64,000 nucleotides of DNA from Candidatus Kapaibacterium sp. (GCA_963665665.1 OY762428.1:3968001-4032000); one strand, 5' to 3'. Shown: positions 31,533 to 64,000, counted from the first letter of the stretch. The notes: generated from the sequence alone by a model not told the origin. Numbers and translations are program-made.

Positions 31533-31613
31533 CTCATCTCCCGGGGTATGTGTTTGGATTTATTAAATTACCCATCCGATGACTTTAAGTCATCGGATGA
31601 GCTGCTGAATATT

Positions 31614-33038: not shown

Positions 33039-33119
33039 TTCATCTCCCGGGGTATGTGTTTGAATTTATTAAAATTACCCATCCGGCTGCTTAAAGCCGC
33101 CGGATGAGCTGCTGAATAT

Positions 33120-34544
33120 CTATCTTTCAATCCTGAAGCGCAGGATTCTTATATTGTTTTCGAGTTCTATGTGCAGGAAGTATGTACCCGAGCTAAGGCT
33201 GCCAGTGGCTATTCCGGCAGACAAATTCCCGATGCTGCCTTCGAGAGCTTTTTTGCCGTTAATATCACTGATACTGTAATTTACAGCCGGGCCTGTTTTC
33301 TCGGTTTCAAAATTCAAAAATATTCTGTTACGTGCCGGGTTGGGGTATATGAATGCCGACTGCAATTCCTTTTGCTCCACCGATACATATTTGGGTGCAA
33401 TTTCTGCAAGGTACAGATGCCTGAAATCATTCACGCCGTAAACAATCAGGTTGCCGTTGTCCTTTTCTGCAACCCCGCCAAGGTAGTTCTCGCTGTCCCT
33501 TGCCCAAATATATTTTTCTTCAATATCTCCTTCAGGGCTAAGTATTATAAGCATGAAATACATTTTATAATGGTTGGCAACATCCTTTATCCTGCCCCAT
33601 GCTGCAATTTTCCCGTTTTTTAATTCTTTAATGCCTCTTACCGACCAATTTTCTCCTAACTCATGTAATTTCTTTATTAAAATATTTCCTTCCTTATCCA
33701 ATTTTAAAAGCAACCATTGTTGATTGCCGTTTTCCGGCTTTGTACGGCAATTATAATATTCAGTTCCGTCTTTATTTTCAATTACATTATAGTATGAGTA
33801 GTAACCAACTCTCGGATCAATTTTTTTTCCTGATATATAATTTCCTTCCGAATCAAAAATTGTTCGTACAAAATATGATTGCTTAGCAAATTCCATATCG
33901 CCAGGCCCGGCATAGTCCATTTGATAATTTCCGTATGAAAGCGCTTTCAAGTTTCCGGGCTGAAATATTGTTAATACATCCATGTCAATTTGTTCCTTAT
34001 GCAGGACAAAAGAATTAATTGTATCCATCCTTAAGTTATAGCATGTAAAAACAGTAGTATCTTTAACAAAAGTATGCAGAGCATATAGAATTGTATCTCC
34101 TTGTGGATAATATTGAGCATTCAAATACATATCTTTCTCAGGATATTCCTCAAAAACATTTCCATTTCCGTCAAGTTTCTTCTTTTTTAAATAATAGCTT
34201 GAATAAATCGGGTTTTTCCGGGTATAAAATATTATCGCATTGTTTTCTTTTCGAACCCGGTCTGCCCAATCTTTAAAATCTTCTTTAAAATACTTATGGT
34301 AAATTATTTCCATGTTTAAATTACAAGCTATAATCCCTGGATTTACTTTTTGTTCATTGTTTTCTGTATAAGAGGCTGAATAAATTAAATAAAGCATGCC
34401 ATCAATTTCGTACATATCGGGTATGGCCGGGGCGTACCCGTTAGGTTGTTCAATAAACATTTCATTAATAATTTCGGGTTCCTCGGCGTAAATATTAATA
34501 ACGCTTATGGATAATAATAGTAAAGCAAGTACGAATGTTTTCAT
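33120..34544 (-). CDS. T9SS type A sorting domain protein, paralog C
   Basis: Same architecture, 474 aa, 1506 bp from paralog B. Confidence 0.9.
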   Translation of the reverse strand: MKTFVLALLLLSISVINIYAEEPEIINEMFIEQPNGYAPAIPDMYEIDGMLYLIYSASYTENNEQKVNPGIIACNLNMEIIYHKYFKEDFKDWADRVRKENNAIIFYTRKNPIYSSYYLKKKKLDGNGNVFEEYPEKDMYLNAQYYPQGDTILYALHTFVKDTTVFTCYNLRMDTINSFVLHKEQIDMDVLTIFQPGNLKALSYGNYQMDYAGPGDMEFAKQSYFVRTIFDSEGNYISGKKIDPRVGYYSYYNVIENKDGTEYYNCRTKPENGNQQWLLLKLDKEGNILIKKLHELGENWSVRGIKELKNGKIAAWGRIKDVANHYKMYFMLIILSPEGDIEEKYIWARDSENYLGGVAEKDNGNLIVYGVNDFRHLYLAEIAPKYVSVEQKELQSAFIYPNPARNRIFLNFETEKTGPAVNYSISDINGKKALEGSIGNLSAGIATGSLSSGTYFLHIELENNIRILRFRIER

Positions 34545-39734: not shown

Positions 39735-40388
39735 TCAACTAATCAATTTTTCAACAATTCTATAGACCTGAGAACCAAGTTCTTTTGGAATAATATCTTT
39801 GGTGTTATCATGTTCCTTACCCTGGCCAATAGCAAAATCTACCCTATCCATAAATCTTTTTGGTTTGGGATTATTCTTATTCCAACCTCCCGGAATCAGC
39901 GTTTGCAGGTATTTGTCAATATATTTTTTCCTGCCGCCGGGAACTTTTTTATTTTCAAGTAATTTCCTCCTAACTTCTGGGCTTAAACAGTTAATATCAA
40001 CAAAATGCATTGCAATCCAAATTTCAAAACAGGGATTACTGATTGCAGGAAAAAAATTTCCTTCTTCATTACACATCAGAACAATTTTATTAAGATTTTT
40101 CCATCTATCAACATCTACGATCATCCAAAATTCATCAGAAGGATATAAATGATACTTTTCCTTAATTTCATCTTTTAAAAGATTGAAAACATGAATTGGA
40201 GCGCTCCTTGTATCATCCTTTCCTCTTTTAATAATATGAATATGAATATTCGACGGAATCATTTTGTTATCAATTAATTCCCTGAAATACTTCTCTTCCG
40301 TAATATTCCCTTCGAAAGTCAGAATATATATTTTTTCCGGTTCGATGATATCAGAATCTCTGTATAAATGTGATCTTTCCCGTGCCAT
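39735..40388 (-). CDS. RloB family (TOPRIM-like) protein
   Basis: EGNITEEKYF, VDVD and SNPCFEIWIAMHF motifs. Confidence 0.88.
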   Translation of the reverse strand: MARERSHLYRDSDIIEPEKIYILTFEGNITEEKYFRELIDNKMIPSNIHIHIIKRGKDDTRSAPIHVFNLLKDEIKEKYHLYPSDEFWMIVDVDRWKNLNKIVLMCNEEGNFFPAISNPCFEIWIAMHFVDINCLSPEVRRKLLENKKVPGGRKKYIDKYLQTLIPGGWNKNNPKPKRFMDRVDFAIGQGKEHDNTKDIIPKELGSQVYRIVEKLIS

Positions 40389-40389
40389 A

Positions 40390-41760
40390 TCAGTTATTTA
40401 ACAAGTGTGAAATATCGGGTTTATTGATTTTTGGAACAGCTTTAAATCTTCCGAGAAGATAATCCAACCTGGTATTTTTATCGAAATCAGTTTTAAATTC
40501 ATCAAGAGAGTATAATTTTGTTGCCAAAGATTCATCTTTCCTGAAAAACCAAATTTCATCCTTCCTGAATAGATCATTATTCAATAGCAAATTCTCATGA
40601 GAAGTAAAGATCAACTGGCTATTTTTATTTTTTGATAACACAAATATTAATTCTAAAAATTTTATTACCATGTTGGGATGCATACTTCGTTCAATTTCAT
40701 CAATGAAAAACACTTTGTTTCCCGCGCTGAAATCAAGCAAGAGTGGAATAAAATCAATTAGACGATTAGTACCGTCGGATTCTTGGTTGGAGTCAAAAAG
40801 TACAGGTTCGTATTTATCACCTATCTTGTGTTGAGTCATAAATTTATAAAATGCCAACTCTCCATTTTCTATCGTAATAAAATAATTTTTATTTGTTGAG
40901 GAATAAACCGAGATATAATCCCCTTCATTTTGAACAGTAGAAAGGTTATCCAAAGCTTTTTTTATAGTCTCGGGGGGGATTTCAATTTTATCTCTTGCAA
41001 TTTTTTTAATAGCCACACTATCTATTCCGGTATCAAAATAATCTAATAAACCCGAAAAGATTTCTAAAAGATTTGATTTTTTTTGAATATAAAATCTTGT
41101 ACCGACTTTATATTTATCATCCGGAAAAATTGTAATCAGTGAATTAGCAAACCAATCAATAACATTCAAAATATCATCAATATTCCTGACATTATCTTTT
41201 ACTTTCCTGTTTTTAATTTCAGTAAGTAATAATTGATTGTCAGGAGTACTTTTGGCGATAAACCTGATAAACTGTTTATCTTCCTCATCACTATTCAAAT
41301 TCAATAAATAATTTAGATCGTAAATATTCTTAATTGATTCGTCCCTGTCAAAAATCTTAATTTCATTTTTATCAGTTATTTGATAAAGCCATTCCTCGGT
41401 AATCTTCTTTCTTGAAAAAACGAATCCATAAGCGTAATTTTTTCCATTGCTTTGTAATTCAAATTCCATCCGCGATAATTTATTTCTATTATCCGGATCA
41501 AGCTGAAAATTTTGAAAATCAATTTCAGAATCAGGTTTATTTCCGTTTAAAACAAGATTTCTCCCAAACCGTACAGCTTTAATTAAATTGGATTTTCCGG
41601 AAGCGTTAGGCCCGAACATTACAGAATATTTAAGCGTTTTAATGCCATTTACTTTTTTTCCGATATGTTCCTTCTTTTCACTACTTTTCCCGGGTATCAT
41701 TATTATTGATTGCCTGTCTTTGAAGGATAGAAAATTTTCTATGGTAAATCTTATCAGCAT
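40390..41760 (-). CDS. AAA_21/RloA-type ABC ATPase
   Basis: IENFLSF, GPNASGKS, ESDGT, IDEIERSMHP, QLIFTSH and YLLGRF motifs. Confidence 0.9.
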   Translation of the reverse strand: MLIRFTIENFLSFKDRQSIIMIPGKSSEKKEHIGKKVNGIKTLKYSVMFGPNASGKSNLIKAVRFGRNLVLNGNKPDSEIDFQNFQLDPDNRNKLSRMEFELQSNGKNYAYGFVFSRKKITEEWLYQITDKNEIKIFDRDESIKNIYDLNYLLNLNSDEEDKQFIRFIAKSTPDNQLLLTEIKNRKVKDNVRNIDDILNVIDWFANSLITIFPDDKYKVGTRFYIQKKSNLLEIFSGLLDYFDTGIDSVAIKKIARDKIEIPPETIKKALDNLSTVQNEGDYISVYSSTNKNYFITIENGELAFYKFMTQHKIGDKYEPVLFDSNQESDGTNRLIDFIPLLLDFSAGNKVFFIDEIERSMHPNMVIKFLELIFVLSKNKNSQLIFTSHENLLLNNDLFRKDEIWFFRKDESLATKLYSLDEFKTDFDKNTRLDYLLGRFKAVPKINKPDISHLLNN

Positions 41761-51073: not shown

Positions 51074-52423
51074 CTACAGTCCCATTATTAATATGGCTAT
51101 GTTGAAATATATGATCATACCTGTAACGTCGATAAATGTTGCTATGAAAGGGCTGGATATAACAGCAGGATCGAGTTTTAACTTTTCCAGGGCCATTGGC
51201 AGTAATGCGCCGATAAGATTAGCCCATATTACAAGTATAAGCATTGAAGAACTTATAACAATTGCCAGATTCATACTGTCTTTACCTTCAAAATACCCTC
51301 TGAAATAGGTAACACAACCTAAGGCCAAACCAAGTAACAGTCCGATAAATAATTCTTTTCGGAAAACTTTAAGCCAGTCATTGATTTCAATGTCGTTTGT
51401 TGCCAGGCTTCGGATTATCAGCGTTGAAGACTGTGTGCCGGTATTACCGGCAGTTCCTATCAGCATTGGAATGAAAAAAGTCAAGGCCACTACAGCTTCG
51501 ATTATTTCAGAGTAAACTGATATTACTGCTGCTGTTATAAAATTGGCTAAAAGCAAACCAAGAAGCCAGGGAAATCTTTTCGACCATAAACGCCATGATG
51601 ATGCGTTAAGATATGCCTGGTCAACGGGATTGATCGCTGATATTTTCTGAAAGTCCTCTGTGGCCTCTTCTTCAGATATATCCATGATATCATCGAAAGT
51701 AACTATACCAACAAGCTTTCCTTCCGAGTCAACAACGGGGAGGGCGGAAATATCATATTTTTCCATGGTGTGTACAGCTTCTTCCTGATCGTCGAAGGCT
51801 GAAAGGCTTACTACATTATAGTCAGCAATATCAGCTATTGTCTGCTTATCGTTAGCAAGAATAATGTTTCTAAGCAGTATATCATCAAGAAGCTTACCGG
51901 ATCTGTCAGTAACATATATTCTGTTTACGGTTTCACTATCTTTGCCGAACATTCTGATTTGATTCAAAGAATCCTTAATTGTCCATTCAGGGCGCACCGC
52001 AACAAAATCAGGAGTCATCAGCCTGCCAATACTTTCTTCGGGGTATCCGAGCAGCTCCCTGGCTTCTTTCAGATCCTCCGGACTAAGTAAATTTAAAAGC
52101 GACCTGGTTACTTTTGCAGGTAATTCCTCAAGCAGTGAAGTTCTGTCATCAGGATTCAGGTCGGCGAGAAGTTCTCTGGTTTCCTGATCAGTCATTTCAA
52201 TTAGAAGCACCTCCCGCTGTTCGTGCTCCATATAGGTGAAAACATCAGTAGCAAGGTCCCTGGGCAGGGCCCTGAAAAGTAGTACCCTGTTGTATTTATC
52301 GATATCAAGAACAAGGTCGGCAATTTCAGGAGCAGGCCATGAAGAAAGTATATCTTTAAGATCCATCCATTTATGATTGTGGATCAGCTCTTTTATCTCC
52401 GGTTTCAATAGTTCTTTCAGCAT
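51074..52423 (-). CDS. mgtE: Magnesium transporter MgtE
   Basis: MgtE N-domain, CBS pair, GNTGTQ and DPAVISSPFIATFID motifs; ATG 52423 preferred. Confidence 0.95.
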   Translation of the reverse strand: MLKELLKPEIKELIHNHKWMDLKDILSSWPAPEIADLVLDIDKYNRVLLFRALPRDLATDVFTYMEHEQREVLLIEMTDQETRELLADLNPDDRTSLLEELPAKVTRSLLNLLSPEDLKEARELLGYPEESIGRLMTPDFVAVRPEWTIKDSLNQIRMFGKDSETVNRIYVTDRSGKLLDDILLRNIILANDKQTIADIADYNVVSLSAFDDQEEAVHTMEKYDISALPVVDSEGKLVGIVTFDDIMDISEEEATEDFQKISAINPVDQAYLNASSWRLWSKRFPWLLGLLLANFITAAVISVYSEIIEAVVALTFFIPMLIGTAGNTGTQSSTLIIRSLATNDIEINDWLKVFRKELFIGLLLGLALGCVTYFRGYFEGKDSMNLAIVISSSMLILVIWANLIGALLPMALEKLKLDPAVISSPFIATFIDVTGMIIYFNIAILIMGL

Positions 52424-52564
52424 GACTTTCTCCGGTTTTTTCCATTCCTTTGCAAAAATATTATTGCAAATTAAGCATAATTCTCTATTTTTGCCTTGCA
52501 AATTTTGCGCAGCTGTTTGAAAACGGGTTTAGAAAATTATTTTCTTTGTGTGGAAAGATTTTTC

Positions 52565-52595
52565 TTGTTTTGTATTTAGAAAACTCTTATATTTG
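52565..52595 (+). promoter_or_regulatory. Bacteroidota-type promoter of rpsT
   Basis: TTG - 20 nt - TATATTTG. Confidence 0.6.
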
Positions 52596-52631
52596 AAATC
52601 TATGTTAAATACTAAATTTTATGGGTGTTAA

Positions 52632-52898
52632 ATGGCGCATCATAAGTCGGCAATAAAAAGAATAAAGCAATCAAATAAACGCAGAATTTATAACAGGCAG
52701 CACAAGAAAGCCGTTAAATATGCTATCAGAGACGTTCGTGAAGCTACAAATTTCGAAGTAGCCTGGGAAAAATTTAAATTAGCAACAAAAGTACTTGACA
52801 GGGCAGCAGCTCAGGGCGTTGTTCACAAAAACAATGCTGCACGGCGCAAATCACGCCTTGCTAAATTTGTTGGCAAACTCAGGAATGTTGAAGCATAA
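52632..52898 (+). CDS. rpsT: 30S ribosomal protein S20
   Basis: MAHHKSAIKR...HKNNAARRKSRL. Confidence 0.97.
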   Translation: MAHHKSAIKRIKQSNKRRIYNRQHKKAVKYAIRDVREATNFEVAWEKFKLATKVLDRAAAQGVVHKNNAARRKSRLAKFVGKLRNVEA

Positions 52899-52920
52899 TT
52901 CCTGATAATTAAAAATTTCT

Positions 52921-52994
52921 GCACCCGTGGCTCAACTGGATAGAGCACCTGACTACGGATCAGGAGGTTACAGGTTCGAATCCTGTCGGGTGTA
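52921..52994 (+). tRNA. tRNA-Arg(ACG), CCA not encoded; probable integration site
   Basis: Acceptor GCACCCG/CGGGTGT, D-arm GCTC/GAGC, anticodon arm CCTGA-CTACGGA-TCAGG, T-arm GGTTCGAATCC. Confidence 0.96.
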
Positions 52995-53004
52995 CGAAAT
53001 AAAT

Positions 53005-53037
53005 AAGCCGCTACAGTTAGTTCTGTAGCGGCTTTTT
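53005..53037 (+). terminator. Hairpin/terminator after tRNA
   Basis: AAGCCGCTACAG...CTGTAGCGGCTT + T-run. Confidence 0.8.
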
Positions 53038-53090
53038 GCGTTTTTTGATTTCGTTTTTTCTTCTTTTTTTCTTTGGCTAATTTTAACCAA

Positions 53091-53153
53091 TTCTACCTTT
53101 TTCTACTGTTTTCTACCGTTTTTAGTAGAACATTGGTAGAACATTAGTAGAAC
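53091..53153. repeat. Putative integrase arm-type/RDF sites: 3x TTCTAC facing 3x GTAGAAC
   Basis: TTCTAC at 53091, 53101, 53111; GTAGAAC at 53125, 53136, 53147. Confidence 0.65.
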
Positions 53154-53158
53154 GTTTT

Positions 53159-54229
53159 TTAAAACTTTTCCTCCAATATATCTTTCAATACATCAGTATA
53201 TTTCTTTGTGTACTTTCTGTATGTCAAATTTATATCGGTGTGCCGCATCAGATTTGCAGTGTTTTTTAATGACACCCCGGAATTAATTAATTTATTGCTG
53301 AATGTATTTCTCAGCCTGTGGAAGGATTCCCCAGGAACATAATACCCCAATTTCTTGCACACATTGTTAAATTTTTTTGTCAAATTTGATTTCGACACAG
53401 CCTCCCATTTAAATACCTTTTGTTTCTTAGCACCGTATCTTGATTGTGCAATCTGGTACTGCTCCAACAATAACTCACTTATATTTTTTGTAATAGGGAA
53501 AGTATCAATCACTTCCTTATTTATTTTATTTGGCACTTCGATAATCCCTGTTTCAAAATTTATGTCTGTAAACTTCATGTTAAGCGTTTCACTAATTCTA
53601 AATCCTGTCATATACATAAAACGTATAAGATTATTAAACTCTCTGTCCGGCCTGTAATTTGTTCCTTCCATTGTTTCCAGAAAATTAAATATATGTTCCA
53701 TTTCCTCATCAGAAAATGGCTCTTTGGGCTTATTCTGTACTTTTTTCATAAATTCATTACATATATTCGTTTTCTTGATATACTCTTCGCTAATACAATA
53801 ATTCACAAAAGTACGAATATGCCGCAATGCAGTGTTTTTCGATACAACCTGCATATCGGAATTCAATACAAAACTATTTATCATTTTTTCGAGTATTTTC
53901 TTTGATAATATTTCATCAGGTTTCTCAATAACCTTGCAATATGCCCAATCATAATTTCTCATCGTTTTCGGGGCCCGCCCCTTTGCTGTCTGCCTGTCCA
54001 TAAATTCCTGCCAGGCCTGTGCTATTGTTTTTTGCTTTGCCGCCGCGTCTTCAAACTGCCCGGTTATCTGTTGGCGGTAATACTCGTCCTTCAGCTTGTA
54101 AGCAAGCGCGTAACCCTGCTTGTCAGCATTCAGCCCTGTTTTATACCATTTATTAGATATTTTGATATACAGTTTGTTTCTTTTCTGTACTACGCTCCCC
54201 GGTGAACTTGCTCCGCGTTTCCTTGCCAT
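53159..54229 (-). CDS. Tyrosine recombinase/integrase
   Basis: Catalytic R (GFRISE), HRLR, H (MRHTD) and Y (KYT); ATG 54229 after AGGAGG. Confidence 0.93.
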   Translation of the reverse strand: MARKRGASSPGSVVQKRNKLYIKISNKWYKTGLNADKQGYALAYKLKDEYYRQQITGQFEDAAAKQKTIAQAWQEFMDRQTAKGRAPKTMRNYDWAYCKVIEKPDEILSKKILEKMINSFVLNSDMQVVSKNTALRHIRTFVNYCISEEYIKKTNICNEFMKKVQNKPKEPFSDEEMEHIFNFLETMEGTNYRPDREFNNLIRFMYMTGFRISETLNMKFTDINFETGIIEVPNKINKEVIDTFPITKNISELLLEQYQIAQSRYGAKKQKVFKWEAVSKSNLTKKFNNVCKKLGYYVPGESFHRLRNTFSNKLINSGVSLKNTANLMRHTDINLTYRKYTKKYTDVLKDILEEKF

Positions 54230-54615
54230 TGTGCCCTCCTGTTTTGAAAATAAATTGCGACACCGTTTTTTTGATGCTATAATCAAAGCCAGAATCAATT
54301 TCAATCCAAGTTCTCTTAAGCTCTTCAGCCCAAAATTATGAAGTGAAATGTTGATATTTTTTAATTATTCAATAAATCTATGTTACAATTAACATAGTTG
54401 TTTGAATACATATTTCCAAATTTATCTTTGCAAAAAAAATATTAAAATCAGATTAAAATTTTTAAGTCTAAAAATCACAATTAATTGAATTTTATAGAAT
54501 CCTCTCCCTTGCCTTTTTCAAGAATATTAACGATATTGAAGCTGAATGTTCGTTAGGGAAAATTTCGCTTTTAGCTTGTACAAAATTGATAGTTCCATTT
54601 TTTTTGACTTTTATT

Positions 54616-55071
54616 ATGCAAAAAGATAACAAAACTTATAGTATCACTGATCTGGTCGAAGCTTACAGGCAATTTATTAGGTATCAGAATAACGAGAACT
54701 TCCAGTATCATGTTGAAAATTATCGGGCAATGAGCAAAGCTTTTGGGATATTCTTTGAAAATAAAATACCTGACAGGGTATTGGAAGATTACAGAAATTG
54801 GTTTGAAAGATCAATCATGGACAGCCTGAAAAGCCTCAGCCCTTTCAATGGTCTTCTGGAAGCTCCGAAGCATATTATCAAGCTTTTCAAATCCCAAGGT
54901 GGTCACTTCAAGCAAATTGAAGATGATTTTATGATTGCACACAGAAATTTTCAAATACACCTGGTAGAATTGATGTTTGGAAAAGTTGAAAAATCTGTAA
55001 CCTCGGATGACCTGCTGGAAAATGGTTTTGATGACAGACGTGAAGCTCCTGATCCATTTGATTATTCGTAG
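54616..55071 (+). CDS. Hypothetical protein
   Basis: Clean ORF downstream of promoter-like repeat; no recognised motif. Confidence 0.7.
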   Translation: MQKDNKTYSITDLVEAYRQFIRYQNNENFQYHVENYRAMSKAFGIFFENKIPDRVLEDYRNWFERSIMDSLKSLSPFNGLLEAPKHIIKLFKSQGGHFKQIEDDFMIAHRNFQIHLVELMFGKVEKSVTSDDLLENGFDDRREAPDPFDYS

Positions 55072-55088
55072 AATTGTAGTACATTCGA

Positions 55089-55140
55089 TTTTCTTTACCC
55101 CAAGTTAAAAAATTACTGTCATTTCTAAAATATCGGTACA
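55089..55140. repeat. Repeat family R, copy 1 (copy 2 at 58568-58619)
   Basis: 32-bp exact TTTTCTTTACCCCAAGTTAAAAAATTACTGTC plus about 20 bp similar extension. Confidence 0.9.
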
Positions 55141-55327
55141 ACAATAACCATTCAGTCGGTAAACTTTGAATGTTTTATGCGCTAAACAAAAATGAAAACT
55201 GTTTGTAGGAAAATATTTGTTCAGATCATTGAATTAAGCTCCCAATTGACTGATTTGTTATTTTGAAATAAATTCGTATATTAAATTGTTATTTCTACTT
55301 CTTTTGTTTGAAAAATCAGGTGCCATT

Positions 55328-56455
55328 ATGAAGAGGTTCATACCATTTTTATTTATTTCCATTTTAACTTTAATTGAAGTTCAAGCTCAATGTGTTGAAG
55401 GAGATTGTCAGGACGGCTATGGTGTTTTAAATACTCAGGGTGAAATTTATAAAGGAGAATTTAAGAACGGAAAGATGAATGGCAAAGGCAAATATATCTG
55501 GCCTAATGGAAATTATTTAGAAGGAATATTTGTTGACGATTATCTTGAAGGCCTTGGATATAGTTATTATGCATCTGATAGTACACTATACAAGGGGATG
55601 TTCCATAAAGACAAATTGCAGGACGGACATGTTGTAGTTTTTCGGAATGGAGATACAGTCTATGTAGGGGATATGGTTAATTCTAAATACAATGGTAAAG
55701 GAAAAATATTTCTACCGAATGGAGATATTTATCAGGGTGATTGGAAGAATGATAAAATGGATGGAAATGGTACATATTTTTATAAAAATGGGAATTATTA
55801 TACTGGCGGGTTTCGAGACAATTTGTTTCATGGCAAGGGAAAATGCTTGAATGGAAGTGTTCTTTACGATGGCGATTGGGTCAATGATGTTATTGATGGA
55901 GATGGAATTTATATTTATCAAAATGGTGATAAATATGAAGGAGGATGCTATAAATGGATGAAACATGGAAGGGGAACTTTGACATATAAAAGTGGTGGAA
56001 AAATGATCGGCCAATGGGAATTAGATGTTTTTGTAACCGGAAACGAAATTGATAAATATCAGACAAGTGTCGTTTTTTTGGAACATTCTGAATCCGGAAT
56101 TTATTTTATTCCGGTAAAGCTCAATGACAAAATTGAAATTAATATGATATTGGATACAGGCGCTTCAGAATTGTTTTTAACTCCTGATATTGTTCTAACT
56201 TTGATCAGAACCGGAACCTTAACAGAAGATGATATTATGGAAGGTGGTACATTTACTGATGCCAATGGTGATTTAAACTATCATGTTCGGTTCAATATTA
56301 AAAGTGTTAAAATCGGAGATTTTACTTTTGATAATGTTTCTGCTGCAATAGCTAACCAGGTAATGGCATCAAACCTATTAGGCCAAAATGTATTAAATCA
56401 ACTAAAAAGGTTTACATTTGATTATGTCACTGCTACTATGATTTTGTATCGGTAA
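55328..56455 (+). CDS. Secreted MORN-repeat protein with C-terminal retropepsin-like aspartyl protease
   Basis: Signal peptide, CVEGDC, repeated YxGxFKNGKMNGKG units, LDTGAS and LLGQNVL motifs. Confidence 0.88.
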   Translation: MKRFIPFLFISILTLIEVQAQCVEGDCQDGYGVLNTQGEIYKGEFKNGKMNGKGKYIWPNGNYLEGIFVDDYLEGLGYSYYASDSTLYKGMFHKDKLQDGHVVVFRNGDTVYVGDMVNSKYNGKGKIFLPNGDIYQGDWKNDKMDGNGTYFYKNGNYYTGGFRDNLFHGKGKCLNGSVLYDGDWVNDVIDGDGIYIYQNGDKYEGGCYKWMKHGRGTLTYKSGGKMIGQWELDVFVTGNEIDKYQTSVVFLEHSESGIYFIPVKLNDKIEINMILDTGASELFLTPDIVLTLIRTGTLTEDDIMEGGTFTDANGDLNYHVRFNIKSVKIGDFTFDNVSAAIANQVMASNLLGQNVLNQLKRFTFDYVTATMILYR

Positions 56456-56518
56456 AAAATTTGACAAATTCAGATACTATTTCAATATAAAAAATTGTTC
56501 ACATTATTGGGGTTAATT

Positions 56519-57688
56519 ATGCAGGATGATACTTATTCAGAACTCGAATTAAGAATTAAAAGTATTGAGAAGAAACAGAAAAGAAGCAAATTTACAAATC
56601 TATTCCTGTTACTAATAATCATATCCGGGTTAATGTATGGTTTCCAAATTACCCAAAAATTTAAAACACTGGAAGTTGAAAAACTAGTTTTAATTGACAG
56701 TCTTGGTAAACAAAGAGTTGTAATGATGATTGATGAAAAATTTGATCCTAAGTACCAAATGTTTAATAAGAATGGAGATGAAGTATTTGATTTAAGTTTG
56801 GTAAGAGATAAGGCTAATATAAATATGCGTTTTATCGATTCAAATAAAAACGAATCAGTATTATTGTTAAATTCAACTGAATGCATATTAAAAAATGATA
56901 CTAATTGTGCCATTCATTTAACAACTGAATATGATTTAAGTCCTTATATTTTTATTTATCGTAAGGATAATTCTGGTTCAAGTTTCTCATCCGATATAAA
57001 AGCATCATCTATACAAATGGTACATGCCAAAAACGGAGAATCAAACAATTATATCTACATTAAAAATTTTGGTGAAGGTGATTCTCTTGGAATAAAAATT
57101 TCAAAACATTCCTCCGAAAGAGATAGTATGTTTGCGGAAGCCATTGAAGTTAAAATTGAAAACTTTGGCCCTCAAATCCATATGTACGACTATAATAAAA
57201 CTACTTTAAAGTACAGATACCGTCAATTGTTAACCAACTATGGAAATAAATGTGTTTGTAGTCTCGATAGTACTAAATTGGTTTTTGGATATGATTGGTC
57301 AGATTCTTGGAGAAGTAGATTGGTTCATACCCAACCGGGTATGAGAATTTACGATAGAATTAATTCATTGCGCTATATGTCAGGTATTACATATGATAAA
57401 AATATGGTCTATACATCTTACTATGGTAAATCATCTTCTGATATAACTATTATTGGCAATCTTCAAAACAATGGTTTTTTGGATTTTTATAAAAATGATC
57501 GTACGAGAATATCTTTGAACTTTACAGATTATGGCGTACCAAGTATATCTATGTTTGACTATTATGGTAATATTCGATTAAACCTTGGAGGAATTAAAAC
57601 CACAAGAAATGGCAGGTCAATTAATAATTACGAATCTTCAATATTTCTATTTAATGAAAAAGGAAATGGACTTTTTTCAGCCCCGTAA
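56519..57688 (+). CDS. Hypothetical membrane-anchored beta-rich protein
   Basis: Short coiled coil, single TM, recurring (D/N)xxGxxR-type beta motifs. Confidence 0.7.
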   Translation: MQDDTYSELELRIKSIEKKQKRSKFTNLFLLLIIISGLMYGFQITQKFKTLEVEKLVLIDSLGKQRVVMMIDEKFDPKYQMFNKNGDEVFDLSLVRDKANINMRFIDSNKNESVLLLNSTECILKNDTNCAIHLTTEYDLSPYIFIYRKDNSGSSFSSDIKASSIQMVHAKNGESNNYIYIKNFGEGDSLGIKISKHSSERDSMFAEAIEVKIENFGPQIHMYDYNKTTLKYRYRQLLTNYGNKCVCSLDSTKLVFGYDWSDSWRSRLVHTQPGMRIYDRINSLRYMSGITYDKNMVYTSYYGKSSSDITIIGNLQNNGFLDFYKNDRTRISLNFTDYGVPSISMFDYYGNIRLNLGGIKTTRNGRSINNYESSIFLFNEKGNGLFSAP

Positions 57689-57704
57689 TAAAGAAAGCAA
57701 ATAA

Positions 57705-58454
57705 ATGAAAATAGAAGAAATAAATAAAATGATCGAAGAAAAGAAAAAATCTGAAACGTTAATGTATTTTAGTGAAATTGATAATGCAGTTGATTCCTTA
57801 GAAACAGCTGTTTTTTTAATTGACAGAGATGATTCCGGCAAGTGGAAATGGGTATCTTTGTGTATTTATCATTCTCTGTATAATTTTTGCATTGCTTCAC
57901 TAACAAATGGATTTTCCGGGAATGTTCTTCAAGATAAAAGAGGTAAAATATTTTATTCTCGTGATGAAGTTAATTGGAAAAAGGCAGTATGGAAAAAAAT
58001 TGATGGTACAACGTTTGGAAGAATACAATGGAATGATGTAACGGATAAGTCGGAACTACCGAAGATCGATAATAATATTCCAAATACTGATGAAGTGTTT
58101 TACGAATATGAAAAGAATGATTTGATTTCTTTTCAATGTGCCTTGTCCCGAGTAATGGATCAGGAATACTGGATGGGAAGGTATTATGATCAAAAAGGAC
58201 TCAAATTATCCGATGAGGAAATTAAAGATATTGATAAAATTCATAAACTTAGGAATGATTTTATTCATTTTAAACCCAAACTGGTAATATATGATATTGA
58301 AACAATAAAAAAGAAATTAGAAATTTATTTGAAAGCTATAACATTTCTCGTTTTTGATTCTAATTCAATATTGGAAATTGGAGAAAAACCTTTTAGAGAC
58401 AGAGTTGAGGAATTATTACATAAACTGAGTATAGAACTTGATATTCAGAACTGA
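57705..58454 (+). CDS. Hypothetical protein with HEPN-like Rx4H motif
   Basis: LRNDFIHFKP near C-terminus in a helical protein. Confidence 0.6.
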   Translation: MKIEEINKMIEEKKKSETLMYFSEIDNAVDSLETAVFLIDRDDSGKWKWVSLCIYHSLYNFCIASLTNGFSGNVLQDKRGKIFYSRDEVNWKKAVWKKIDGTTFGRIQWNDVTDKSELPKIDNNIPNTDEVFYEYEKNDLISFQCALSRVMDQEYWMGRYYDQKGLKLSDEEIKDIDKIHKLRNDFIHFKPKLVIYDIETIKKKLEIYLKAITFLVFDSNSILEIGEKPFRDRVEELLHKLSIELDIQN

Positions 58455-58567
58455 AATTTCGATTCGTTAGTTTGGTCAGAAAAAAAAAACCGGTAGCTTG
58501 TCACTGCCGGGGTTTTCGACTATCAGGCCAATGCTCTGTTTTTAAAAATCCAAGAAGAAACCACAGG

Positions 58568-58619
58568 TTTTCTTTACCCCAAGTTAAAAAATTACTGTCT
58601 TTTCAAGAATACTGGTACA
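58568..58619. repeat. Repeat family R, copy 2; reads as a minus-strand promoter
   Basis: Minus strand: CTTGAAAAGACAGTAATTTTTTAACTTGGGG. Confidence 0.85.
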
Positions 58620-58820
58620 CTAACAACTGTTTATCGGTACACACGACTGCTGGTTGTGCAACAGGTGGTTGGCAACTCAGCTAACTATATAAATCACATC
58701 TGACTCCTGTTAGTAATTATATTCAAAAATATTACGGCTTTTCTGCTCGATGTATTAAAGATTGAACTTTATAGAAACATCACCTTTTTTAACATACAAT
58801 ACCAGTACAATAAATTATAC

Positions 58821-58848
58821 AAAAAAGCCGGGAATTTCTTCCCGGCTT
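58821..58848 (-). terminator. Terminator for minus-strand HTH gene
   Basis: A-run then GCCGGGAA...TTCCCGGC. Confidence 0.75.
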
Positions 58849-59060
58849 GCTAAGGAACGCATGGCAAAGCAAAAACCAATAGAAAATAAGGAGCTAAAGA
58901 AGCTATTCTGAGTACATTATGCCATGATATTCCGTGAAATTTCAGTGAAAACGGCGTAGCAGTGCGATTTTCGCGCAACTTTTCAGCAACTTTTTGTTGA
59001 TTATCTGCAACAAAGAGCACTGCGTCGCAACTTTTATCAACTTTCTGCAACATTCTGCAA

Positions 59061-60041
59061 TTATTCGCCTGTTGCATCCGTTTTACCGGAACTATCTGCA
59101 ACAAACGAGTCTAAATCATCATCAAAGTCATCCAAATCGGGCAAATCAGGATAAGTTGCATAGTCAACAGGCTCGGGTTGCTGATAGTTTGCCTGTTGTT
59201 GCATTGGCGTTGCAGCCTGTTGCTGTTTGGCAGCGAACATATTCGAAAATGTATTGACAAGTTTCGGCGCGATGCTCGGCCCGATGTTCTCGCCCAGGCT
59301 TTTAAGCAACTCGGACACACCCGGTTTGTCGAGCAGGCCGGAAAGTCCGCCGCTTTCTTTATCTGAGTTCTTACGCAGTTCTGCAATTACCCTGTCGATT
59401 TCTAATTGGATTTCGTCGCCGAATTCAATTATCCTGTTCTCAACCATCTCAGTAATCAAATTCCGGATTTCTTCCTTATTAGTTTTCAGCTTTTCATCCA
59501 TTACAATTTCAAGGTTAAAAGCCTGATCCTGAATTTTACCGTTAATATTATTCTGGAAGTTCTCGAACAGGTATTTCATGTGGTCAACCTCGCGGATAAC
59601 CTGCATATTCTTCAGCCTTTCGTCCTGAAGCTCCTGCGTCAGGTTATAATTTCGGCTTTCCAGCTTATCCATCTTACTTTCTCCCTTACGCACTTCATTT
59701 GTCAGGTATCGTGTATATTCATCGTCGTTTAATTGTTCCATCGGATTTTCCTTAGTTTTTGAGGCAGGTTTCAGTTGTTTCTCGTATTCCATTGTCTGCT
59801 TAATTCTGTTAATCGCGTCAGGGGCGTACTCGGCAGCTCCTCCGGTTTCGGTAAGGCCCTGCACGAAGTTCTGCACAATGTTTGCCGGAACCAGTTCCTG
59901 CTTTTTTCGTTCCATTCTGGAAATCTGACTTTTACTGCTCATGTTAAGAAGCCGTGCAGCATTTTCCTGGCTAAGCCCGAAATATTCCCTCAGCCGTCGG
60001 AATTCTTCTCCTGTCAGTGGAGGTAGGTTGTCGTGAAACAT
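59061..60041 (-). CDS. XRE-family HTH protein with coiled coil and Q/D-rich tail
   Basis: FRRLREYFGLSQENAARLLNMS..QISRMER; heptad-rich middle; acidic C-terminus. Confidence 0.8.
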   Translation of the reverse strand: MFHDNLPPLTGEEFRRLREYFGLSQENAARLLNMSSKSQISRMERKKQELVPANIVQNFVQGLTETGGAAEYAPDAINRIKQTMEYEKQLKPASKTKENPMEQLNDDEYTRYLTNEVRKGESKMDKLESRNYNLTQELQDERLKNMQVIREVDHMKYLFENFQNNINGKIQDQAFNLEIVMDEKLKTNKEEIRNLITEMVENRIIEFGDEIQLEIDRVIAELRKNSDKESGGLSGLLDKPGVSELLKSLGENIGPSIAPKLVNTFSNMFAAKQQQAATPMQQQANYQQPEPVDYATYPDLPDLDDFDDDLDSFVADSSGKTDATGE

Positions 60042-60303
60042 AATTTGTCTTTCTATTATTAATTATATGTTCGTGTTTCATGTTTGATTGAAGCTATTCA
60101 TGAATATAATTATCTTATAGTTAGTAATAAAATAATTTATATTCGTTTTAAAAATTCTGCCTTCATAATCGCTCTCAGAGCCATTTTAGCCGCAGTCTTC
60201 GATTAAAACCATAGCCCTGCATCCAAATCATCACAATGGTTAAATACGGCGCTAATTCCAAGTCCGGCAGTAATTTCCCCGATTATATCCCCAAATATGG
60301 CTT

Positions 60304-60690
60304 TCATAGTTCCTCCTGGGCATTCGGGAACAACTTCGGGGCATTTTCGAGGAAACGGAAAAGCTCGTCCGTGAGTTCTTTCAGGATTTCATCACTAATC
60401 TTGAATTCATTCATGCAGGCAAACGCCAACATAAGAAAATCCTGAAGATAGCTGCGATAGAAATCAGGGCTGGCAAGAACGTCGTGCTCCATGCTCAGGC
60501 GTTTTGTTTCGTGCTGCTTTCTAAGCATATCGGCAAGGTGGTCAATGGCCTCTTTTTCCGGTGCAAGAGGGAAAAGTATTGCTGCCGGTAAATTATTTTT
60601 CGTCAGGCAGGCAAAACCCAGCTTTTCACTCACCCTTACGAGCTGTGAAATTCCCATTTTCGAGGCTTCGTTCATTGCGAAATTTTGCAT
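60304..60690 (-). CDS. Hypothetical protein with Phd/YefM-like N-terminus
   Basis: ISQLVR...CLTKNNLPAAILFPL resembles the Phd ITxxGxPxAVL motif. Confidence 0.55.
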   Translation of the reverse strand: MQNFAMNEASKMGISQLVRVSEKLGFACLTKNNLPAAILFPLAPEKEAIDHLADMLRKQHETKRLSMEHDVLASPDFYRSYLQDFLMLAFACMNEFKISDEILKELTDELFRFLENAPKLFPNAQEEL

Positions 60691-60827
60691 AATGGTCTAA
60701 CCTTGTTTATTATTGTAAAATACTGTTAAGCCCATAAAAAACAATGGCTTATAGTTATAATATACGAAAAATATTTCAATATATTTCAATGTATATGAAA
60801 ATTTATTTTAAGATTTGTATATTCCTT

Positions 60828-60964
60828 CCCTTGCCTTTTTCAAGAAAATTTGCGATATTGGGAATTGAATGCTCGCGGGGGAGTATTCCGGCAATGGCAG
60901 AGCGAAGGGTAGGAAAAATTTAATCAAAGCGGCAGTCAAAACTGACTGGTGTTTTTCGTGGTTT
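60828..60964 (+). repeat. Repeat family P, copy 1 (promoter-like + structured RNA + terminator-like hairpin)
   Basis: 60845-60964 matches 62000-62119 at 116/120; partial copy at 54506-54552. Confidence 0.92.
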
Positions 60965-60985
60965 GATATTTATGAAAGGGTTATT

Positions 60986-61675
60986 ATGAGATTTTTAATA
61001 CTTTTTGTTGTAGCTGTTTTGTCAATTTCTTTTCAGTCTTGTGGGATATCCGGAAATATGACAAGGTCATCAGATATGATACAATTTCAGGGTCGAACTG
61101 CTGTACTAATTGGTGATTACGACCTGGGCAATCTGCCTGATGTTAAGAATGATATTAGAGAATTAAATAGAATTTTACTTAATGCTCTTAAGAGAAATGG
61201 TGTTAATGTAAAAATTACTGATATTAATTCAATTGGCGTATATGATCGTTCTAAGTTGAAGGAAATATGTGAACTCCTTAATATTGACCTTTTGATATTA
61301 CCGTCTTACAATGTTTATGATTCATGGCGGGAATATGTAATCGTTTCAACAAAAAAAGAAGCTGTTAATCTGGAACTGCTTTTTTATGATAATAAGACAG
61401 AAAAGATTGAAGGGCGTATCTTTTGTACCGGAGAATATTTCAGATCCCAGAGGCAAATATTTCTTCTTGGAGGATTAACTACATTTGCAGTTGCAAGCCA
61501 AAAGGATGATGATAAAGAAAAAATTTTAACTTATGGTCTTATCGGATCTGCTGTGATTGAATTTATTAATCATATAGTTACCAGCAGCCCGGATTATCAA
61601 AATACTTTCGAATTTACAATTAACAGGGCAATTGACCATGCTTTTAGAACTGTCCGTTTAAAGGTGGATTATTGA
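60986..61675 (+). CDS. Hypothetical lipoprotein
   Basis: ATG 60986 gives MRFLILFVVAVLSISFQSC with a lipobox; the upstream ATG at 60869 lies inside repeat P. Confidence 0.75.
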   Translation: MRFLILFVVAVLSISFQSCGISGNMTRSSDMIQFQGRTAVLIGDYDLGNLPDVKNDIRELNRILLNALKRNGVNVKITDINSIGVYDRSKLKEICELLNIDLLILPSYNVYDSWREYVIVSTKKEAVNLELLFYDNKTEKIEGRIFCTGEYFRSQRQIFLLGGLTTFAVASQKDDDKEKILTYGLIGSAVIEFINHIVTSSPDYQNTFEFTINRAIDHAFRTVRLKVDY

Positions 61676-61676
61676 T

Positions 61677-61982
61677 ATGAAAACCAATCACTTAATAATT
61701 ATCAAAATCCTTCTTGCAATCTTATTTCTGATATGTCTGCTTAACATGCCTTATGGCTATTTCCAATTAGTCAGGTATCTGGGTATGGTTGGTTTCGGGA
61801 TTTTAGCCTATAAGCAATATCAGAAGAACCTGGGATGGTTTATAATGTGGCTGGCATCAGCAATCCTGATTAATCCAATAATTAAAATCTCTCTTGGAAG
61901 ATTGATTTGGAATATTGTTGATGTTATTTGGGCCGTAATTCTGTTACTTTCAATATTTCTTGAGAAATATGATACTGATTAA
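61677..61982 (+). CDS. DUF6804-like small membrane protein
   Basis: MPYGYFQLVR, LINPIIKI and WNIVD motifs. Confidence 0.75.
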   Translation: MKTNHLIIIKILLAILFLICLLNMPYGYFQLVRYLGMVGFGILAYKQYQKNLGWFIMWLASAILINPIIKISLGRLIWNIVDVIWAVILLLSIFLEKYDTD

Positions 61983-62119
61983 CCCTTGACTCTCTCATCA
62001 AAATTTGCGATATTGGGAATTGAATGCTCGCGGGGGAGTATTCCGGCAATGGCAGAGCGAAGGGTAGAAAAAATTTAATCAAAGCGGCAGTCTAAGTTGA
62101 CTGGTGTTTTTCGTGGTTT
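61983..62119 (+). repeat. Repeat family P, copy 2, upstream of hsdM
   Basis: Direct repeat 1155 bp from copy 1; CCCTTG retained at the same spacing. Confidence 0.92.
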
Positions 62120-62163
62120 ATTTTTTTGTAATTTGGGAAATTATTGAATTTTAAACAGGACAA

Positions 62164-63624
62164 ATGATGTTTGAGCAGACTTTTAAAAATATTGACGATA
62201 TATTATATAAGGACAGCGGCGCAGATAGCGAACTGGATTATATAGGCCAGACTTCCTGGATACTTTTCCTGAAATACCTTGATAACCTGGAAAAGGATAA
62301 ATCCGACAAAGCTGAACTTCGTGGCGAAGATTACAACTATATTCTTGCCGATGAATTTCGCTGGCCAGCATGGGCCATGCCGAAAGATAAGGACGGCAAA
62401 AAGGATCATAATAAAGCCCTGACAGGCCCCGACCTGGTGCAGTTTGTTGATGGGAAGCTCTTTCCATACCTGGCAGGATTTAAGCAGCAGCACAATGATA
62501 AACCGCAAACCATTGAATATAAGATCGGTGAAATATTTTCCGAGTTGAAGAACAAAATCCAGAGCGGCTATAACCTTCGGGAAATTATTGAATATATCGA
62601 TCCTCTGGAATTCCGCACGCAAAAGGATAAACACGAGCTGAGCCACCTGTACGAAAGTAAAATTAAGAACATGGGTAATGCCGGGCGTAACGGCGGGCAA
62701 TACTACACCCCAAGACCGCTTATCCGCGCAATGATTAAGATCATCAAACCGCAGATTGGCGAAAAAGTTTATGACGCTGCCGCAGGCTCCTGCGGATTTC
62801 TTTGCGAAGCTCATGATTATATCTACGGCAGTATGAAGAAAAATACTGCCAACCTGAATACATTGCAGTCCGATACTTTTTACGGCAAGGAGAAAAAGAA
62901 CCTTGCCTACGTTATTGGCATAATGAATATGATACTGCACGGAATTGAAGCTCCCAACCTGATCCATACCAATACGCTGGGCGAGGACATAAGAGGAATC
63001 CAGGAGAAAGACCGCTATCATGTTATATTGGCAAACCCGCCATTTGGTGGCAAGGAAAGAAAGGAAGTTCAGCAGAATTTCGATATTAAAACAGGCGAAA
63101 CTGCTTTTCTATTCCTTCAGCATTTTATTAAAAGCCTTAAGGCCGGGGGCCGCGCCGCTATAGTAATAAAGAACACATTCCTGAGCAACACGGACAATGC
63201 CTCGATCAGTTTGCGTAAACACCTGCTGGAAAGCTGCAACCTGCATACAATCCTTGATATGCCGCAGGGAACATTCCTCGGGGCCGGAGTGAAAACCGTT
63301 GTGCTTTTCTTCCGCAAGGGCGAGCCTACGAAAAGCACATGGTATTACCAGCTTGATCCCGGCCGCAGCCTTGGTAAAACAAATCCGCTTAATGACGCAG
63401 ACCTGGAGGAATTTGTTGAATTGCAGGAGAAAAAGCCGGAAACGGAAAAAAGCTGGAACCTGAAATTTACTGATGTAAACCCGGATACTTTTGACCTTTC
63501 CGTGAAGAACCCGAACACACCCGAGGAAGCCCCGCTGCGAAGCCCTGCCGAAATACTGAAGGAAATGGAAGAGCTTGACGCGGAAACAAAAGCCGTGCTA
63601 TCATCGATCAGGGAGCTGGTATGA
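62164..63624 (+). CDS. hsdM: Type I restriction-modification methyltransferase subunit
   Basis: GQYYTPR, YDAAAGSCGFL and ANPPFGG motifs. Confidence 0.93.
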   Translation: MMFEQTFKNIDDILYKDSGADSELDYIGQTSWILFLKYLDNLEKDKSDKAELRGEDYNYILADEFRWPAWAMPKDKDGKKDHNKALTGPDLVQFVDGKLFPYLAGFKQQHNDKPQTIEYKIGEIFSELKNKIQSGYNLREIIEYIDPLEFRTQKDKHELSHLYESKIKNMGNAGRNGGQYYTPRPLIRAMIKIIKPQIGEKVYDAAAGSCGFLCEAHDYIYGSMKKNTANLNTLQSDTFYGKEKKNLAYVIGIMNMILHGIEAPNLIHTNTLGEDIRGIQEKDRYHVILANPPFGGKERKEVQQNFDIKTGETAFLFLQHFIKSLKAGGRAAIVIKNTFLSNTDNASISLRKHLLESCNLHTILDMPQGTFLGAGVKTVVLFFRKGEPTKSTWYYQLDPGRSLGKTNPLNDADLEEFVELQEKKPETEKSWNLKFTDVNPDTFDLSVKNPNTPEEAPLRSPAEILKEMEELDAETKAVLSSIRELV

Positions 63625-63661
63625 ACGAAAGAATTAAAGAAAACCTGAAAAAGATAAAAAT

Positions 63662-64000
63662 ATGAAAATTGATTTTAATGAACTGGTAGGGAACATACTT
63701 AGTACTGATTCCGGTTTTCGCAACCATGCTGTCAAATCTGTTGATAAATTGATGACATTACGGAACTGGCTTATTGGCGCTTATATTTTTGAATATGAAC
63801 AGAACGGCGCTGATAAGGCTGAATACGGAAGCAAACTGGAAGAGAATATTGCCGTGAAAATAGACCGGAAAGGGCTTTCTGCAAGAAACTTAAAGCTATT
63901 CAAACAGTTCTATATTACTTATCCACAGATTATGCAGACAGTGTCTGCGTTATCTGAAATCAGCCCGGAAACGGTGCAGACAGTGTCTGCATTATTGCCC
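63662..64000 (+). CDS. DUF1016 (YhcG) family protein, runs off the window
   Basis: Manual translation MKIDFNELV...RNWLIGAYIFEYEQNGADKAEYG...SARNLKLFKQFY. Confidence 0.88.
   Translation, partial: MKIDFNELVGNILSTDSGFRNHAVKSVDKLMTLRNWLIGAYIFEYEQNGADKAEYGSKLEENIAVKIDRKGLSARNLKLFKQFYITYPQIMQTVSALSEISPETVQTVSALLP

Follow-up and report, generated by a model that had tools for sequence, protein, structure and literature searches.

Mobile genetic elements carry variable defence hotspots, which are exchanged by homologous recombination through conserved flanks. The locus treated here is a putative integrative element, with an unusual set of internal repeats, in a 64,000-nucleotide stretch of Candidatus Kapaibacterium sp. 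DNA (GCA_963665665.1, OY762428.1:3968001-4032000; "the window", in whose numbering all positions are given). Judged by analogy, its closest published counterpart in spirit may be rAID-1 (recombinase-associated acquired interbacterial defence) of the Bacteroidales, in which a tyrosine recombinase lies beside a low-GC array with repetitive intergenic sequences, and the array genes are small, mostly unrelated and in many cases lipoprotein- or immunity-like (Ross et al., 10.1101/471110). The defining criteria in that text are an XerD-like recombinase at least 44% identical to that of B. fragilis 9343, located 5' of and co-directional with at least two downstream genes having a GC content of at most 41% (10.1101/471110). 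Islands at tRNA genes formed by tandem accretion, including cis-mobilizable elements (CIMEs), provide another point of reference: internal direct repeats delimit separately excisable modules, and decayed modules lacking an integrase are described (PMC5704250), and modular excision is also described for PAISt (PMC4057263).

In the window, the sequence beside a tRNA-Arg gene would be the left end, ~11 kb long, of an integrative element whose family is restricted to the lineage and represented in the same genome by several copies, diverged and mosaic. Its plus-strand cargo is partitioned by two families of short repeats, P (copies P1 to P3) and R (copies R1 and R2), for which a preliminary description had proposed a cassette system with P and R as promoter-supplying recombination handles. 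The partition is plain from the gene map. Our analysis speaks for recombination scars of an ordinary kind and shared leader sequences, rather than for machinery dedicated to cassettes, and we give an even chance to the reading in which P and R are leader or regulatory sequences that were duplicated and left behind by recombination among sister copies of the element. The features on which the argument rests are as follows.

52921-52995, plus strand: tRNA-Arg (ACG), predicted by ARAGORN and matching the Rfam tRNA family at 68.2 bits
53159-54229, minus strand: tyrosine integrase, 356 aa (Pfam Phage_integrase, E = 6e-24)
54435-54567, plus strand: P1, a diverged partial copy extending from the AT-rich upstream part over the hexamers to ~35 nt into the leader (from alignments)
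54616-55071, plus strand: orf161, 151 aa from its ATG; no family match, singleton cluster
55089-55164, plus strand: R1 (from alignment)
55328-56455, plus strand: protein with MORN repeats, a retropepsin-like aspartyl protease domain and a signal peptide (Pfam MORN, gag-asp_proteas), hereafter MORN-protease
56519-57688, plus strand: orf389, predicted to be membrane-anchored, no family; listed as a 397-aa open reading frame (ORF) from a TTG; singleton
57705-58454, plus strand: orf249, with an R-x4-H motif in its translation
58568-58642, plus strand: R2 (from alignment)
59061-60041, minus strand: HTH326, 326 aa, an XRE-type helix-turn-helix (HTH) followed by a long coiled coil and an acidic tail (Pfam HTH_31)
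60304-60690, minus strand: orf128, a backbone gene divergent from P2; six-member cluster
60767-60975, plus strand: P2 (from alignments)
60986-61675, plus strand: lipoprotein with signal peptide and lipobox cysteine, an ORFan (from translation)
61677-61982, plus strand: DUF6804 small membrane protein (Pfam, E = 2e-28); singleton cluster
61983-62131, plus strand: P3, its first base directly following the DUF6804 stop codon
62164-63624, plus strand: HsdM, the methyltransferase of a type I restriction-modification system (Pfam N6_Mtase, HsdM_N; PADLOC MTase_I, E = 9e-159)

All five repeat copies lie where the preliminary description had placed them, and its figures for their near-identity were reproduced. 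The gapless alignment of P2 (60828-60971) with P3 (61983-62126) has 132 of 144 positions identical (92%; blastn E = 1.7e-56), including 116/120 in the frame used in that description (60845-60964 and 62000-62119) and a longest exact run of 68 nt (60845-60912). A 63-nt piece of this run has two copies in the window, against none in 100 shuffles. R1 (55089-55164) and R2 (58568-58642) share 83% identity over 76 nt (blastn E = 3e-16), with an exact block of 32 nt at the left end, also present twice in the window and absent from 100 shuffles, and ~70% identity over the remaining 44 nt. P1 is a real but diverged and partial copy, matching P2 at 81% over 63 nt (54491-54552 and 60814-60875; blastn E = 8e-10), and gapped alignment lengthens this match to 54435-54552 and 60767-60875, farther upstream than the homology between P2 and P3. 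An AT-rich left part is therefore common to P1 and P2 and missing from P3 (P2 60767-60827 matches P1 only), while a downstream part of ~95 nt, within the portion of P2 that matches P3 (60828-60971), is common to P2 and P3 and missing from P1. By blastn, no other copy of P or R was found in the remaining ~53 kb of the 64-kb window. A 27-nt stretch at 58761-58787 (81% identical to 54484-54510) was considered as a decayed fourth P fragment and discarded as a chance-level match (E about 0.1-0.25). The mismatches are unevenly placed in both families, with p = 0.004 for the 68-nt exact run of P2/P3 and p = 0.011 for the 32-nt run of R1/R2 under uniform placement, as would be expected if the identical core had served for crossing-over or gene conversion, or is under constraint.

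The position of the repeats relative to the cargo also proved to be as previously proposed. P1, P2 and P3 precede orf161, the lipoprotein and DUF6804 genes, and hsdM, respectively; R1 starts 17 nt past the orf161 stop codon and R2 follows the terminator-like hairpin that lies 3' of orf249 (after 58454, plus strand), such that R1 and R2 bracket the three-gene block of MORN-protease, orf389 and orf249. Base composition follows the same borders. The integrase and orf161 genes have GC contents of 0.358 and 0.369, and two low-GC blocks (0.29-0.33) coincide exactly with the segments between R1 and R2 (MORN-protease 0.332, orf389 0.290, orf249 0.291) and between P2 and P3 (lipoprotein 0.328, DUF6804 0.330), set against a GC-richer backbone of 0.45-0.46 (HTH326 0.448, orf128 0.460, hsdM 0.457). 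The edges of the P2-P3 unit are tight, as the P2 homology fades ~15 nt before the lipoprotein ATG and P3 abuts the DUF6804 stop codon, and the R-bracketed block, of which MORN-protease is the first gene, has its own upstream spacer in addition to its own terminator-like hairpin. The composition jump together with the bracketing gives the picture expected of two self-contained modules spliced in, each leaving a direct repeat.

The element has relatives that appear to reside in the same genome. Paralogues were taken from 90%-identity protein clusters by means of exact protein look-ups, and their placement in the same genome is deduced from the equal length (5,458,198 bp) of the contigs recorded for the window proteins and for their sisters. 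A contig of this length encodes two distinct sequences of the integrase (97.5% amino acid identity to the window copy), two of MORN-protease (99.2%), two of orf249 (92.8%, the paralogue being 266 aa long), three of HTH326 (96.0-96.6%) and four of orf128 (94.5-95.3%), and more family members are found on contigs of 502,520 and 80,844 bp; the paralogues of HTH326 and orf128 taken together span 96-98% and 94.5-97.7%. The orf128 family forms a single six-member cluster in the whole protein collection, and a search of that collection yielded no relative of the lipoprotein, which together indicate that the element family is lineage-restricted. No paralogue at 90% identity or above was found for orf161, orf389, a 34-aa ORF next to orf128, the lipoprotein, DUF6804 or hsdM; the lack of one for the last three suggests that the copy-specific part of the element starts at P2.

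The differences among copies are strongly clustered. Of the nine amino acid changes between the integrase and its paralogue, eight fall within residues 1-94, and beyond these the two proteins are nearly identical, suggesting a recombination breakpoint inside the integrase gene. In HTH326, 9 of 11 changes relative to one sister (P0008) are located in the last 35 residues, and within the R-bracketed block divergence ranges from 0.8% (MORN-protease) to 7.2% (orf249). The clustering and the uneven divergence show the copies to be mosaics made by recombination, and a multi-copy mosaic family means that partners for homologous exchange exist in the same genome.

As judged from its sequence, P resembles a promoter joined to a leader, and may have a regulatory, structured leader function. 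P2 and P3 contain sigma-70-like hexamers (TTGCCT-17-GATATT and TTGACT-17-GATATT, respectively) with a TG before the -10, i.e. a putative extended -10, followed immediately by an 8-bp hairpin that is also a near-palindrome as DNA. The P core has a GC content of 54%, compared to 20% for the rest of that spacer. P2 has an ATG at 60869, a hairpin at about 60867-60888 and a terminator-like hairpin at 60933-60948 followed by a T-run, whereas P3 carries a 22-codon upstream ORF and a terminator-like hairpin at 62088-62103; the terminator stem is just 5-6 bp. Of the 12 differences between P2 and P3, five lie in the -35 hexamer and spacer, one in the leader, three in the top or loop of the terminator hairpin and three at the fading right edge, with the -10, the hairpin stems and the T-run being identical. 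Compared to shuffled sequences, the predicted RNA fold of P3 has z = -2.43 (4 of 200 shuffles as good) and that of P2 z = -1.59 (12 of 200), and on the opposite strand P folds no better than shuffles. P would accordingly read as a promoter-like 5' leader with sigma-70-like hexamers, an extended -10, a GC-rich leader of ~100 nt, a hairpin, a short ORF and a weak terminator.

All three copies have the ATG in an equivalent position, a few bases past the expected transcription start, opening ORFs of 27 (P1), 39 (P2) and 22 codons (P3, with the stop in the terminator loop), and the encoded peptide is not conserved, differing between P1 and P2. The P2 ORF runs in frame into that of the lipoprotein, and the database form of the latter (268 aa) starts at 60869 inside P2; because the ATG at 60986 is where the signal peptide and lipobox begin, the start was probably annotated 39 codons too far upstream. 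Among longer proteins, a P2-encoded 42-aa peptide matched only its own 268-aa protein, and none of seven spurious ORFs overlapping P1, P2, P3, R1 or R2 was present in the protein collection.

R offers fewer clues. It is AT-rich (GC 0.30-0.32; R1 0.30), has no significant RNA or single-stranded DNA (ssDNA) fold on either strand, and stands out only for its position on either side of the AT-rich block of three genes. A likeness of GGTAC-type motifs in R to the GTAGAA array near the tRNA was considered and dismissed, with just one near match. Neither P nor R matches an Rfam 15 family at gathering score, the whole window yielding the tRNA only, and E-value scans of 52400-64000, 61960-62170 and 58455-59065 returned only far-sub-threshold chance matches; a known RNA family is thereby ruled out for both repeats.

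In the favoured reading, P and R would be conserved non-coding pieces of the element family, presumably present in the sister copies as well, and the backbone would run from orf161 to HTH326, orf128, P and hsdM. P2/P3 and R1/R2 would then be direct-repeat scars, each pair flanking an AT-rich module recombined into the GC-richer backbone, with the lipoprotein-DUF6804 and MORN-protease modules having entered by homologous recombination through P and R, respectively, most likely from a sister or related element. If the crossover took place in the identical core, P2 would keep an island-type left part, like P1, and P3 would have a divergent one; the left parts of P2 and P3 are indeed of these two kinds, a hybrid pair as from a crossover. 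As the modules share a leader, they would probably be co-regulated, and each could presumably be lost as a loop, or regained, through general recombination.

Several observations weigh against this reading. The visible breakpoints fall inside genes and not only at P or R. The earlier claim of P and R as exchange points gains no support from this: with the amino acid differences clustered within the integrase and HTH genes, the breakpoints would seem to be those of ordinary homologous recombination, at any place in the backbone that the copies share. Homologous recombination alone leaves the origin of the first P-cargo-P arrangement unexplained, and 32 identical nucleotides, as in R, are few for RecA-dependent exchange, judged by the threshold known from E. 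coli. The other half of the earlier proposal, that P supplies promoters, is likewise weakened. The motif TAnnTTTG, typical of Bacteroidota, precedes many housekeeping genes in the window and also occurs at 54423 upstream of P1, yet none was found upstream of P2 or P3, and the sigma-70-like hexamers of P may thus go unused. The fold z-scores of P are modest, with only two to three copies available for covariation, and P1 folds no better than shuffles (z = +0.80). Searches elsewhere were also negative: a degenerate pattern covering all three P copies had 0 matches in the GTDB species representatives; none of 59 pattern matches to the integrase in GTDB representatives was confirmed by tblastn, with a query that began one codon before the ATG; and the plasmid and phage collections contained no match for 60800-62165 or 53000-60990.

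The most serious competitor, which we regard as a real but minor possibility, is that P acts chiefly as a cis-regulatory RNA leader, namely an attenuator that includes a leader ORF, or encodes a small RNA, possibly combined with an operator for the HTH protein of the island. Selection for co-regulation would then keep the copies alike, and the bracketing of the lipoprotein module would be incidental to promoter duplication. The GC-rich core within an AT-rich spacer, the hairpin and near-palindrome right after the -10, the ATG kept in all three copies, the fold of P3 and the occurrence of P2/P3 substitutions in the hexamer spacer and terminator loop, with -10, stems and T-run unchanged, are all what such a leader would predict. 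It fits less well that P1 retains just the first third of P and lacks the fold, that the peptide differs between P1 and P2, that the terminator stem is so short, that even short-input Rfam scans gave no match and that two to three copies are too few for covariation; moreover, a leader function leaves R and the composition jump at the repeat edges unexplained.

Readings that give the repeats a more active role fare worse. We consider it improbable that the locus is a lineage-restricted non-integron cassette platform with P and R as its recombination sites, in which promoter-leader modules serve both for expression and as crossover sites, and self-contained defence or immunity modules are shuttled among the in-genome copies by a recombinase or by a homologous route favoured by the element. 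A dedicated non-integron cassette platform, with P and R as sites at which the island integrase or a recombinase beyond the window moves promoter-bearing modules, is very improbable. An integron-like layout of a divergent integrase followed by modules separated by repeats, the clean edges of the P2-cargo-P3 unit, and the exact 68- and 32-nt cores, which resemble the identity blocks of att cores, would suit such a platform, but each repeat occurs in just two to three copies, a separate specificity would be required for each of the two unrelated repeat families, and the HTH326/orf128 module is on the opposite strand. The integrase furthermore occupies the usual tRNA-targeting position with its own repeat array at the tRNA side, an att region that P and R do not resemble; the repeats lack an attC-type hairpin fold, and no homologues were found in the GTDB representatives, searched with P and the integrase, or in the plasmid and phage collections. 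The least probable of the explanations, in our view, is that P and R are small dispersed intergenic repeats, similar to miniature inverted-repeat transposable elements (MITEs) or repetitive extragenic palindromic (REP) sequences, which are in the island by chance. Their size (76-150 nt), intergenic location and internal hairpins are in keeping with this, whereas the absence of copies from the other ~53 kb, the lack of terminal inverted repeats or target duplications on reading the edges, and the uniform orientation of all copies directly upstream or downstream of plus-strand units are not.

The remaining features of the island are listed below.

52632-52898, plus strand: ORF upstream of the tRNA, read as S20 (rpsT) from its translation alone
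53091-53152, no strand assigned: six GTAGAA repeats, three inverted and then three direct, with ~10-11 nt spacing (motif scan)
58975-59103, no strand assigned: six GCAAC repeats with 11-51 nt spacing, six in 129 nt compared to a window background of 0.9 per kb
60203-60307, minus strand: 34-aa ORF, its start overlapping the orf128 stop (ATGA); singleton in the protein collection
63662-64000, plus strand: gene with a DUF1016 N-terminal domain, truncated by the window end (Pfam; PADLOC PDC-S02)

The left border of the island is at or just past the 3' end of tRNA-Arg. The integrase, XerC/XerD-like according to NCBIfam and PDB matches, adjoins this gene and reads toward it (3' end at 53159, tRNA end at 52995), and the GTAGAA array between the two is a candidate for arm-type recombinase binding sites of the island attL. 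The GCAAC cluster sits at and past the 3' end of the HTH326 gene, and two more GCAAC are present just right of R2 (58658 and 58672). The array could be iteron-like or otherwise protein-binding (an origin, a centromere-like site or recombinase arm sites). HTH326 itself is a candidate regulator and backbone gene, for which the plasmid and phage collections contained no protein match. It ends 8 residues before three sister sequences (334 aa), with a TAA (59061-59063) at the position of their lysine codon, and the 7 codons past this TAA still read like the tail of the sisters; it looks like a recent nonsense change. A 160-nt gap separates the HTH326 start from the 34-aa ORF. The ESM Atlas gave no usable match for orf128 or HTH326, and an AlphaFold2 model of orf128 made without an alignment was unusable (mean pLDDT 51). 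A 26-nt likeness on opposite strands, between 55259-55283 upstream of the MORN-protease gene (plus) and 60758-60783 upstream of orf128 (minus), may reflect a shared island promoter or operator, though it scores near chance level.

With regard to cargo function, the retropepsin-like C-terminal domain of MORN-protease has a match (E = 1e-5) in PADLOC to the candidate defence model PDC-M08B, and the block of MORN-protease, orf389 and orf249 may be a defence or immunity module. No match was obtained for orf249 in Pfam, NCBIfam, PADLOC or PHROG, and its R-x4-H motif is a HEPN-like lead only. A literature search on DUF6804 found no papers. Elsewhere in the window, outside the island, a gene for an AAA_21/AAA_15 ATPase is followed by one for an RloB-like protein (39735-41760, minus strand); such pairs resemble abortive-infection or defence modules. 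A further region (30108-34544, minus strand) contains three tandem 474-aa ORFs with a 1506-nt period and DNA repeats of the same period, and the one scanned (30108-31532) has a C-terminal sorting domain of the type IX secretion system (T9SS). T9SS sorting domains and TAnnTTTG motifs in the window point to a Bacteroidota-like organism.

Should modules really travel through P and R, mobile elements would have, in addition to integrons and the rAID-1 arrays, on which few studies exist, another way of gathering defence or immunity genes that are ready for expression, here in a lineage of which hardly any relatives have been sequenced. On the more ordinary reading it would be a clear case of short regulatory leaders serving as homology for the exchange of modules between sister elements. 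P would in addition be a candidate new cis-regulatory leader before a type I restriction-modification operon.

How, then, does the island relate to the described systems? Integrons, especially chromosomal arrays, share with it a divergent integrase followed by unrelated genes between similar repeats of ~60-150 nt. However, integron cassettes are co-oriented and mostly promoterless, with one promoter by attI, whereas here HTH326 and orf128 face the other way, and the repeats, which resemble promoter-leaders, precede genes. The preliminary description was right in seeing neither attC structure in P and R nor IntI features in the integrase: ssDNA folds of P2, P3, R1 and R2 on both strands contained no single long hairpin of the attC type (z from -1.97 to +1.57), and the integrase scored 41.3 bits against the integron-integrase model TIGR02249 (cut-off 265), below the XerD and XerA models, with eight PDB matches that were XerC-like, XerD, XerH, Tn1549 Int and one labelled RaiA, none of them IntI. 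An integron is ruled out on both grounds.

The island is probably a tRNA-integrated one, with a tyrosine integrase gene beside the 3' end of tRNA-Arg; no duplicate of this 3' end (attR) was found in 53000-64000, and the island runs past the window end. It resembles the accretion and CIME islands in combining a tRNA location with internal direct repeats that delimit modules. The internal repeats there are copies of the element's own att core (the tRNA 3' end), whereas P and R are unlike the tRNA or attL: neither the tRNA with its flank (52921-53060) nor the tRNA-integrase spacer showed similarity to P or R, which rules out internal att copies within the window.

Like rAID-1, the island has a recombinase, low-GC unrelated genes, repetitive intergenic sequences (three P and two R copies) and a Bacteroidota-like host. 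The recombinase of rAID-1 is 5' of and co-directional with the array, whereas the one here is on the minus strand, divergent and abutting a tRNA gene, which sets the island apart from the published definition. The GC limit of that definition covers some island genes (0.29-0.37) but not HTH326, orf128 or hsdM (0.45-0.46). Relative to the rAID-1 arrays, the island further differs in having two to three repeats of each of two families, one inverted module and type I restriction-modification cargo. With regard to the defence hotspots of mobile elements in general, the flanks in the island are short non-coding leaders duplicated within one element rather than core genes, and the likeness lies in a conserved backbone, mosaic copies and copy-specific defence-like cargo, comprising the type I restriction-modification genes, the DUF1016/PDC-S02 gene and the PDC-M08B-like protease.

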